Notes: a model not told the origin generated them from the letters alone. DNA of 5,946 bases from Promethearchaeota archaeon (GCA_027031765.1 JALVPN010000057.1:1-5946), one strand, 5' to 3'. Shown: positions 3,467 to 5,332, counted from the first letter of the stretch. A program made the numbers and translations.

Positions 3467-3575
3467 TGGCGCCCGGAATGAGATTCGAACTCATGCCTCC
3501 CAAAGGGAGAGCAGCTGCCTGTCGGGCCGTACGTCCGGCTCCAGGCTGCCGCCGTAACCACTTGGCTATCCGGGC
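3467..3575 (-). tRNA. tRNA-Ser(GGA) with a 22-nt intron at position 37/38 and genomically encoded CCA
   Basis: The minus strand folds as acceptor stem GCCCGGA/TCCGGGC, D-arm TAGCCAAGTGGTTACGGC, anticodon stem GCAGC/GCTGC with loop CT-GGA-G^A (anticodon 3542-3540), long variable arm CTCCC-TTT-GGGAG, T-arm ATGAG-TTCGAAT-CTCAT, discriminator G and CCA (3469-3467). The spliced length is 87 nt. Confidence 0.95.
3517..3538 (-). other. tRNA intron (CCGGACGTACGGCCCGACAGGC), archaeal bulge-helix-bulge type
   Basis: Removing these 22 nt restores a 7-nt anticodon loop. The exon/intron junctions fold as a BHB-like motif: bulges AG^C and GC^A flank a central helix CUGG/ACAG with one G.A mismatch, followed by an intron helix CGG/CCG. 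Confidence 0.85.
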
Positions 3576-3738: not shown

Positions 3739-3748
3739 TTTAAATATA
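3739..3748. promoter_or_regulatory. Archaeal TATA box (TTTAAATATA) in the divergent tRNA-Ser / GTPase spacer
   Basis: TTTAAATA matches the archaeal TATA consensus on the + strand, predicting a start site near 3768-3770 upstream of the GTPase gene. It also reads TATATTTAAA on the - strand. It stands out in a GC-rich context. Confidence 0.65.
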
Positions 3749-3812
3749 GTCCATGTCGCATAGTGACAATACTGCATGACCCGTGTCGTATCTCAATTGG
3801 GGCCCTCAACCT

Positions 3813-4724
3813 ATGATACACACAATATTCCTCGTGCGTACTCCGAGTTACCGTACTGTGGCAGCATCGAGGTACTGGGCCATCAAAGTCCCAAGACGTG
3901 ACATTATTGAGTACCTGCACGCACGGCAAGACCTCCGAGAAGTGACCTCTGAGAGTGATGCTGTTCCACTTGTAGTACGGGGGAACAAGTACTTCGCGCG
4001 GGACTGTACCGACAGGTATGTCCTGATCTTTGTGACAGACCTCTCTGAGAATGACCGGGTTGTCAATGAGAAGATTGAGGCTGCAGCACAGGAGCTCACG
4101 ACTGCCATCGTGCAGCACTCCATTTCGTATGTCCGTCACAATTTTGCACGGCTGGTCGCACCCTTCGTGCACTCAAGACTGAAGATTGCGCTCGTGGGTG
4201 AGGGCGGCGTCGGTAAGACCACTACACTCCACCTGCTGATGGGACGGCTGCCCCCGCGCCAGTACATCCCTACCATTGCACTGGACATGGAGGTGGTCGA
4301 GAACATCCACTTTGGGAACTACTCTCTTGTCATCTGGGACTTTGCTGGCCAGGAACGTTTCAGGAGGCTCTGGAAGTTCTACTTCAAGGGGGTTGACATT
4401 GTGTTCCTCCTCACCGACTCCACACTGCGCAATGTCCTCGTATCGAAGGAGATGCTCACTCTCATCCGGAGGGACGTACCGAATGTGCCGGTAGTTGTGC
4501 TTGCAAATAAGCAGGACCGCCCGAATGCCCTCGACCCCTCCATCATCGAACGTATCCTTGGTGCTGAGACGTACCCGCTCATTGCAATCGACATCACATA
4601 CCGGGACCGTCTGCTCCACGTCCTGCTGGAGGCTGTGGCACGGCACATCAAGGTCGCGGTGCCCGACGTGTCGCCAGACGAACTGTTCCGTTTCACAGAT
4701 GAGGGCGTGGAGGAACTCACATGA
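3813..4724 (+). CDS. Small GTPase (Arf-like/Ras superfamily) with an N-terminal ~120-aa longin-like domain
   Basis: G1 is GEGGVGKT (4197-4220), G2 is YIPTI, G3 is WDFAGQ (4335-4352), switch II is [10 protein letters not shown]4 is NKQD (4506-4517) and G5 is a divergent YPLIAI (4572-4589). The start is placed at ATG 3813 (MIHTIFLV); the track's GTG 3783 is an alternative. The GTPase call is firm. The longin call rests on a by-eye secondary-structure pattern. Confidence 0.88.
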
Positions 4725-4820
4725 CGGTGCGGAGTCCCTGCACACCGCCTCCCTCAAGAGTGGCCGGTCGCCGTGGATTTGCAGGAAGGACGCACTGGGC
4801 TGCGGCGCTTGATGACAACT

Positions 4821-4829
4821 ATTATAAGC
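4821..4829 (+). promoter_or_regulatory. TATA box (ATTATAAGC) of the rps13-rps4 operon
   Basis: TTATAA core about 55-60 nt upstream of ATG 4883. It predicts a transcription start near 4851. Confidence 0.7.
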
Positions 4830-4869
4830 ACACTCCAGAAGGCGAACAAAGCCTCACACCAGTGAGAAT

Positions 4870-4874
4870 GAGGT
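4870..4874 (+). promoter_or_regulatory. Shine-Dalgarno sequence of rps13
   Basis: GAGGT lies 8 nt upstream of ATG 4883. Confidence 0.65.
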
Positions 4875-4882
4875 TATACTCC

Positions 4883-5332
4883 ATGTCCGAACAGGATTAC
4901 CGACACATAGTCCGTGTGGCAAACAGGGACATTGACGGCCAGGAGAACCTACTTGAAGGCCTGACCCGTATCAGGGGGGTGGGCCTCAGACTCGCAAGGG
5001 CCGTTGTCGTCAAGCTCGGCCTCGACCCTTCCATGCGACTGGGCTACCTCACAGATGAGGAGGTCTCACAGATTGAGGGCCTGCTGGCAGACCCGGTCGC
5101 TACGGGCATACCGGAGTGGTACGTCAACCGGCCACGTGACAGACGGAGCGGTAGGATGCTACACCTGACTGGTGCGGACCTGGAGTTCGCTCACCGTAGT
5201 GATATTGACCGGCTCAAACGCATAAGGTGTTGGCGCGGTATCAGGCATGCCCTTGGCCTGAAGGTGCGTGGACAGCACACCCGGACCACAGGGCGCCGCG
5301 GGATGACAGTGGGCGTGTCGAGAAAGAAGTAG
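4883..5332 (+). CDS. rps13: 30S ribosomal protein S13 (uS13, archaeal type; eukaryotic S18 homolog)
   Basis: The protein begins [19 protein letters not shown], contains LTRIRGVG and [12 protein letters not shown], and ends [32 protein letters not shown]. It is 149 aa from ATG 4883, which has an SD. The track ORF adds 54 upstream codons with no recognisable S13 similarity. Confidence 0.97.

Follow-up and report, generated by a model that had tools for sequence, protein, structure and literature searches.

In Rag/Gtr proteins, a G domain is followed by a C-terminal roadblock dimerisation domain. Longins touch the switch regions of GTPases in trans, as in SRX-SRbeta, Mon1-Ccz1-Ypt7 and TRAPP-Ypt1. 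For Asgard archaea, the available text of Dey et al. (2016, PMC4917890), with reference to Klinger et al. (2016), mentions five longin domains that occur in fusion with Arf-like GTPases of lokiarchaeal origin. According to the available text of Tran et al. (2024, PMC10933270), 74 GTPases are predicted in MK-D1, and in a Rag-like/Arf-like class of them the G domain is joined to either a longin or a roadblock domain, or sits between the two. The same text describes longin and roadblock domains as dimeric GTPase platforms in general, and reports that the longin/roadblock-GTPases of MK-D1 were modelled as dimers by AlphaFold2. Longin N-termini are also found among the Asgard Arf-like proteins of Zhu et al. 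(2025, PMC11914678), whose available text gives a rule for true Arf proteins: G1 has Leu-Asp as its second and third residues, and the third residue of G3 is Gly. Furthermore, Vargova et al. described the ArfL proteins as an Asgard-only group which resembles Arf and is not directly related to eukaryotic Arf or SRbeta.

The protein described here has a longin-Arf-like architecture of this already known kind, and the architecture is therefore not new. A sequence-only reading of the locus had supposed that similar Asgard fusions might already be known, and they have indeed been on record since 2016 (PMC4917890, PMC10933270 and PMC11914678, in their available text). It had also named, as a point against its own novelty, that the family might already be characterised: the architecture is on record, while the available parts of these three papers hold no biochemical work on such fusions. 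The same parts of the three papers make no mention of a tail-less paralog in Thorarchaeota, its C-terminal motif or its fixed genomic position. The protein has the domain order, the size class of about 300 residues and the phylum of the described Asgard ArfL proteins with a longin; however, it is a Thorarchaeota-specific, tail-less paralog, with a C-terminal motif and a fixed location upstream of rps13. What is new is this tail-less paralog of Thorarchaeota, with its lineage-specific motif and its constant place in the genome.

Gene and longin domain

The window, which is the whole stretch of DNA analysed, comprises 5,946 nucleotides from a Promethearchaeota archaeon (GCA_027031765.1, JALVPN010000057.1:1-5946). 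The features of the longin-GTPase gene are given below with their evidence in brackets. Residue conservation refers to two alignments, one of 40 Thorarchaeota homologs and another of 15 rows across Asgard families.

3739..3748, + strand: TATA-box-like element TTTAAATATA, 65-74 nt upstream of the start codon (direct sequence reading)
3813..4724, + strand: longin-GTPase coding sequence (P0001), 303 residues, stop included (ORF list, translation)
3813..4172, + strand: longin domain, residues 1-120 (AlphaFold2, structural alignment, Foldseek)
4173..4649, + strand: Arf-like (ArfL type) small GTPase domain, residues 121-279 (Pfam, PDB phmmer, Foldseek)
4197..4220, + strand: G1 or P-loop GEGGVGKT, residues 129-136 (G129, G134, K135 and T136 invariant in the 40 homologs)
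4338..4352, + strand: G3 and start of switch II, DFAGQ, residues 176-180 (alignments)
4506..4517, + strand: G4 NKQD, residues 232-235, guanine specificity (invariant in both alignments)
4662..4694, + strand: C-terminal motif P-D-L-P-x-D-E-L-L-R-F (consensus), residues 284-294 (homolog alignments)

The start codon is the ATG at position 3813, and the GTG at 3783 proposed by the ORF finder is unused, because the N-terminal M-I-H is invariant in the 40 aligned homologs. The stop codon is located at 4722-4724. Homolog search and alignment show that the frame is intact and conserved, and a pseudogene or spurious ORF was rejected on these grounds. Upstream of the gene, the element TTTAAATATA is a putative archaeal promoter. 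The 303-residue sequence shows no hydrophobic segment and neither an amphipathic helix at its N-terminus nor a lipidation box at its C-terminus. The Pfam GTPase domain starts at residue 121, in agreement with the sequence-only reading, which had placed about 120 residues ahead of a complete GTPase; the observation of a longin domain joined to an Arf-like GTPase in a 303-residue protein is confirmed.

The tertiary structure was modelled with AlphaFold2. Residues 1-120 alone gave a mean pLDDT of 93.0 and a pTM of 0.87, and the full-length protein, modelled from a 40-sequence alignment, gave a mean pLDDT of 84.8 and a pTM of 0.76. According to DSSP, the modelled N-terminal domain contains five strands (residues 2-9, 14-20, 53-55, 58-64 and 69-75) and three helices (residues 28-44, 81-101 and 104-119). 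The resulting topology, strand-strand-helix-strand-strand-strand-helix-helix with a strand already at residue 2, is that expected of longins, and the order of the elements agrees almost exactly with the string of secondary structure first read from the sequence.

An exhaustive structural comparison of the N-terminal domain (VIA-align) with 48,161 PDB representatives found the longin of delta-COP as the best match, with a Z of 14.1, an rmsd of 2.2 and 112 aligned residues across residues 1-120. Over the same residues, it also matched the mu/sigma chains of AP-3, AP-2, AP-4 and AP-1 (Z 11-12.4), VAMP7 (Z 12.2) and sedlin (Z 11.1). Further matches were SRX (Z 10.5), Sec22 (Z 10.4) and Mon1/Ccz1 (Z 9.3-10.1), and Foldseek found AP2 sigma at 6.8e-5. 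Roadblock proteins (MglB, Ego/LAMTOR) reached Z values of 8-11.5, only from residue 1 to about residues 100-105. The longin fold, for which the sequence-only reading had set AlphaFold and Foldseek as a check, is borne out by solved longins that align across all 120 residues, and the roadblock and PAS folds which that reading had weighed against it are rejected on the topology and the alignment ranges. A roadblock/LC7 (MglB-like) fold was rejected since the domain has no N-terminal helix before strand 1 and has two C-terminal helices, whereas the roadblock has one; a PAS/GAF fold was rejected on topology and alignment ranges.

Searches of Pfam/NCBIfam with residues 1-125 of the window protein found no longin match at E<=1, and the sole match was RIF5_SNase_1 (E 0.01, below cut-off). 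The family profile of the N-terminal domain gave only chance-level matches among PDB sequences, with E values of 0.12 or worse. Relatives in other Asgard families, found by the window-family profile with E values of 1e-5 to 1e-17, have N-terminal domains which score 27.3-30.2 bits with Pfam Fuz_longin_1, above its cut-off of 26.1; to Clat_adaptor_s they align from the first profile position, with E values of 4e-4 to 5e-3, below cut-off. The link to longins by sequence is transitive, because the window protein's own N-terminal domain lacks a Pfam longin match and its relatives have one. By its predicted fold, and through its relatives by sequence, the domain is a longin.

The G domain, the junction and the C-terminal motif

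The small-GTPase domain detected by Pfam at residues 121-253 is best matched by Arf (PF00025), with an E value of 5e-23 and 81.9 bits, followed by weaker scores for Roc (67.0 bits) and Ras (58.5 bits). Gtr1_RagA (PF04670, 21.2 bits) and SRPRB (PF09439, 16.9 bits) are below their respective cut-offs of 22 and 25, and NCBIfam TIGR00231 small_GTP, with 63.6 bits, is above its cut-off of 42.5. In a PDB phmmer search, Arf, Arl8, Arl1, Arf6 and Sar1 fill the top 60, and the best Foldseek match of the full model is the Asgard protein GerdArfR1 (PDB 8oum), followed by Arl1. The proposal that the fused GTPase is Arf-like is upheld by both the best curated HMM and these fold matches.

All the elements that define the Ras superfamily, which are G1, the switch-I Thr, G3, G4 and the G5 Ala, were found in the window protein. 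The switch-I Thr154 is invariant or nearly so across the family. In G3, D176, F177 and G179 are invariant in the 40 Thorarchaeota homologs, and the catalytic-type Gln180 is nearly invariant in these and invariant in the 15-row alignment across families. The G5-type Ala258 is invariant or nearly so in both alignments. Judged from these positions, the G domain keeps every residue required to bind guanine nucleotides, together with the catalytic-type Gln.

The strict rule for Arf proteins gives another result, since positions 2-3 of G1 are E-G and not L-D, and the third position of G3 is Ala and not Gly; this form of G1 and G3 is closer to that of Rab/Ras. The N-terminus, where a strict Arf has an amphipathic helix, is filled by the 120-residue longin domain. 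Compared with the Arf family and the Asgard ArfR (GerdArfR1), the window protein has in common a Trp that precedes DxxGQ and, in switch II, the stretch R-x-L-W-x-x-Y-F, but it lacks the amphipathic helix and shows GEGGVGKT instead of G-L-D-x-x-GKT and DFAGQ instead of DxGGQ (PMC11914678, in its available text). The Arf-like HMM match, the failed Arf signatures and the absence of non-Asgard members are consistent with the ArfL group rather than true Arf, a resemblance in features.

These results bear on a role as a switch of membrane-traffic type, in which the protein, like Arf/Sar, would bind membranes in its GTP-bound form and recruit a coat-like partner through its adaptin-type longin. The interswitch of the window protein is three residues longer than that of human Arf1, which counts against such a role. 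The coat subunits delta-COP and AP mu/sigma are the best fold matches of the longin, and Arf, Arl and GerdArfR1 are the nearest matches of the G domain, both of which favour it; however, the protein has no N-terminal amphipathic helix, the Arf-specific L-D of G1 and Gly of G3 are absent, and ArfL is Asgard-only and not directly related to eukaryotic Arf (Vargova et al.). We consider this role very unlikely.

In the AlphaFold2 model, helix 104-119 runs without a linker into strand 121-129, which is strand 1 of the G domain, and the longin domain is predicted to be rigidly joined to the G domain. A junction without linker, together with a full-length pTM of 0.76 that suggests a defined inter-domain arrangement, speaks for regulation in cis. 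The longin would then fold onto the switch regions of its own G domain and serve there as an exchange factor, as an element like a GAP or as a mimic of an effector, so that the protein would be a self-contained timer. A possible interface is provided by the loop Y21-W22 and by D76/E79/D81, which are nearly invariant in the longin domain of the 40 Thorarchaeota homologs, and SRX, Mon1/Ccz1 and TRAPP chains are among the structural matches of the domain. Nevertheless, in the 15-row alignment across Asgard families, conservation in the longin domain is limited to I2 and Y21, which are invariant, and K59, which is nearly invariant; the conserved positions of the two alignments taken together are I2, Y21, W22, K59, F73, D76, E79 and D81. 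Moreover, no conserved Arg finger or Gly-Pro motif, the marks of GAP-type longins such as FLCN, Nprl2 and SMCR8 (PMC12290439), was found within residues 1-120 in either alignment, which counts against this reading. Regulation in cis is, on this evidence, an unlikely explanation.

Only 24 residues follow the G domain. They include the C-terminal motif at residues 284-294, in which P284 is invariant and position 292 is Leu in more than 90% of the Thorarchaeota homologs, and which was modelled by AlphaFold2 as a short helix followed by a strand. The motif is common to the two short types of Thorarchaeota proteins (A and B) and to the tailed paralogs, and it is absent from other Asgard families. 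The window protein ends nine residues beyond the motif, without a tail.

Family, paralogs and genomic neighbourhood

A search among 5.8 billion proteins found more than 100 homologous clusters with full-length coverage and 43-66% identity, and nearly all the named full-length clusters are labelled Thorarchaeota. The profile of the N-terminal domain, compared with 1.84 billion representatives, matched 41 clusters at E <= 0.001, and none of these 41 contains members outside Asgard-type archaea. Nearly all matches begin at the N-terminus or about 20 residues from it, in proteins of about 300 or 460-656 residues plus fragments; the exceptions are two weak matches within proteins of 1380 and 3344 residues.

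The N-terminal domain was found in 162 of the 301 Asgard genomes sampled, including 74 of the 76 genomes of the window's own family and 59/68, 19/19, 3/4 and 3/3 genomes of four other Asgard families. In these genomes it invariably opens frames of about 300 or about 600 residues. It was not found in several large Asgard families (0/28, 0/21, 0/11 and 0/11 genomes). The matches in other families are proteins of about 290-325 residues with the same layout, a longin followed by a GTPase, and longin-GTPases of about 300 residues occur in at least five other Asgard families, of which the largest is, judged by the source names of its members, Lokiarchaeia. The gene is a member of a real and conserved family, Asgard-wide in distribution.

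The window genome contains two copies: the 303-residue protein and a 581-residue paralog (L002:1501-3243, + strand, on contig C90 of genome G000). In the latter, the core is the same and is extended by a tail of about 280 residues, which is acidic, of low complexity and rich in Glu, Asp, Ala, Gly and Val. A roadblock domain was considered for the extra length of this paralog and rejected, the sequence reading as the acidic tail instead; in the long paralogs, Pfam found no domain besides the GTPase. Compared with the Thorarchaeota longin-ArfL proteins that carry an acidic tail of 200-350 residues, the window protein is about 50% identical in its longin and G domains and has the same C-terminal motif. 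Homologs of the 581-residue paralog have an acetyltransferase gene upstream, and genes encoding a protein of about 119 residues, a nucleoside deoxyribosyltransferase, EamA and RtcB downstream. The gene of about 119 residues, just downstream of the tailed paralog, shows a weak Ssb-like OB match in one of three Thorarchaeota loci and no Pfam match in the other two.

Thorarchaeota genomes contain two to four paralogs each, some of them in tandem. Tail-less copies, as judged by E-value and frame length, were found in five of the 16 sampled genera of the window's family. A quick maximum-likelihood tree was generated with 103 rows; rows lacking an initial M-I and rows shorter than 285 residues were excluded. 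The tail-less Thorarchaeota proteins form a single clade (SH-aLRT 100) nested among the tailed forms, which suggests a duplication followed by loss of the tail; that the tail was probably lost in this order is a reading which depends on the root of the tree. Two types of tail-less protein were distinguished. Type A, to which the window protein belongs, shows about 57-66% identity to it, and type B about 38-45%, with a two-residue deletion in switch II (L-W-D-x-x-F in place of L-W-K-F-Y-F). Both types are found at the same locus, in tandem in some Thorarchaeota genomes and singly in others (L024, L025 and L006 versus L034-L039).

This locus is constant: in 19 of 19 Thorarchaeota loci, which belong to several genera, the tail-less gene (or the two genes in tandem) is flanked by an asparaginase-family gene on one side and by rps13-rps4 on the other. 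The gene is always transcribed in the same direction as rps13, at a distance of about 0.13-0.65 kb, and most of the 19 loci also contain the RNase Z-like and geranylgeranyl-reductase-like genes found in the window. In the window itself, the longin-GTPase gene is directly upstream of rps13-rps4-rps11. The ORF finder extends the rps13 frame to 4721-5332 (+ strand), with an ATG at 4721 which overlaps the GTPase stop codon; however, homology (149 residues, 65-75% identical in other genomes) places the start of S13 at the ATG at 4883, leaving a spacer of 158 nt.

In one Thorarchaeota lineage, TnpB/Cas12f-like genes of the IS605 family are located on either side of the longin-GTPase gene (L003:3084-4751, - strand, and 6725-8317, + strand), and with these insertions 2.6 kb lie between it and rps13. 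In four other Asgard families the adjacency to rps13 is absent, and the related genes have unrelated neighbours. Because it is limited to Thorarchaeota and broken by insertion elements in some genomes, the adjacency is read as stable lineage synteny and not as evidence of function.

A further feature of the window is located on the other strand:

3470-3575, - strand: tRNA gene, 106 nt (Rfam, 48.1 bits)

ARAGORN, unlike Rfam, found no tRNA within the window. The Rfam prediction has a variable arm of 13 nt (Ser/Leu type) and 25 nt at the place of the anticodon loop, which suggests that the tRNA gene contains an intron. This gene and the GTPase gene are divergently transcribed.

The neighbourhood raises a translation- or SRP-receptor-like role, on ribosomes or in protein targeting. 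The co-directional arrangement with rps13-rps4 in all 19 loci and the nearby tRNA gene would suit it, as would the resemblance of the fusion to SRX plus SRbeta and the structural match to SRX. Nevertheless, the adjacency is found only in Thorarchaeota, with other neighbours in four other Asgard families, and the insertion elements between the gene and rps13 in some genomes argue against an obligate operon. The SRPRB score of the G domain is below its cut-off, no transmembrane anchor is present, and SRX is ranked under about 20 AP/COPI/SNARE longins. SRalpha SRX/SRbeta also pairs a longin-fold domain with an Arf-related GTPase, but as two distinct polypeptides, of which SRbeta is anchored to the membrane, while the window protein has neither an SRPRB-type G domain nor a membrane anchor, and many longins match it better than SRX. 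Such a role is very improbable indeed.

Other arrangements were also observed. On a related Thorarchaeota contig, the orthologous GTPase gene is preceded, at a distance of about 3 kb, by a gene for a gelsolin-domain protein (L005:1329-1925, + strand), which is a eukaryote-signature protein. In a small Asgard genome (G001, 1.4 Mb, of family f3; region L021:882-5032), a longin-GTPase gene of about 300 residues adjoins an Ssb-like OB-fold gene, two Snf7 (ESCRT-III) genes and a Vps4 gene.

Proposed mechanism and significance

The identification of the window protein as a longin plus Arf-like GTPase protein is close to certain. Taken as a whole, the results are best explained, with moderate confidence, by a soluble two-domain longin-ArfL switch. 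The protein would cycle between GTP and GDP like other switches of the Ras superfamily. The longin domain appears to occupy the place of the membrane-inserting amphipathic helix of Arf, and membrane anchoring by that route is therefore probably absent. The longin would be a built-in platform for pairing, and the partner could be the protein itself, a paralog, or another longin/roadblock protein. The assembly may read out the nucleotide state of the G domain or be controlled by it.

The mechanism with the longin as platform is our best guess, although a tentative one. It draws on the analogy with longin and roadblock domains as dimeric GTPase platforms, on Rag proteins, which carry such a domain permanently, and on the two to four paralogs in Thorarchaeota. 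Analogous platforms are the roadblock domain in Rag GTPases and the longin pairs in TRAPP, Mon1-Ccz1 and AP complexes. A homodimer prediction with two copies and an alignment gave a score of 0.00 and no answer, and was counted neither way. The SR-like or translation-linked role and the Arf-like role at membranes are both less likely than the pairing platform and than regulation in cis.

The comparison with Rag/Gtr shows likeness and difference. Both are small GTPases fused to a platform fold of longin/roadblock kind, with several paralogs per genome; however, the domain order of the window protein is inverted, its platform has a longin and not a roadblock fold, and its Gtr1_RagA score is below the cut-off. 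A C-terminal roadblock domain is likewise absent from the protein. It is quite doubtful, though conceivable, that the longin-ArfL paralogs of Thorarchaeota (the tail-less types A and B and, in each genome, two forms with an acidic tail) pair via their longins as asymmetric GTPase dimers of Rag-like type, the tail-less copy being a lineage-specific alternative partner. Types A and B do not form an obligate pair, since each replaces the other at the same locus in different genomes. If true, such pairing would correspond in archaea to the logic of RagA/RagC, with inverted domain order, and the C-terminal motif would dock in the longin groove.

The suggestion, made at first from the sequence, that this polypeptide could be a precursor of a coat, GEF or SRP-receptor module finds no support here: the Arf-specific forms of G1 and G3 fail, SRPRB and Gtr1_RagA are below their cut-offs, and the literature places ArfL outside the eukaryotic Arf/SRbeta lineage. 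The picture of eukaryote origins is unchanged. Fusions of this type have been on record since 2016, and Arf-specific signatures are missing from the G domain.

The pairing of longin/roadblock platforms with small GTPases is central to how membrane traffic and nutrient signalling work in eukaryotes, and the Asgard fusions of both are natural experiments on which pairs work together. Among them, the tail-less protein of 303 residues is a clean, minimal member of an abundant family, and should lend itself to expression, crystallisation and assays more readily than the relatives with an acidic tail.
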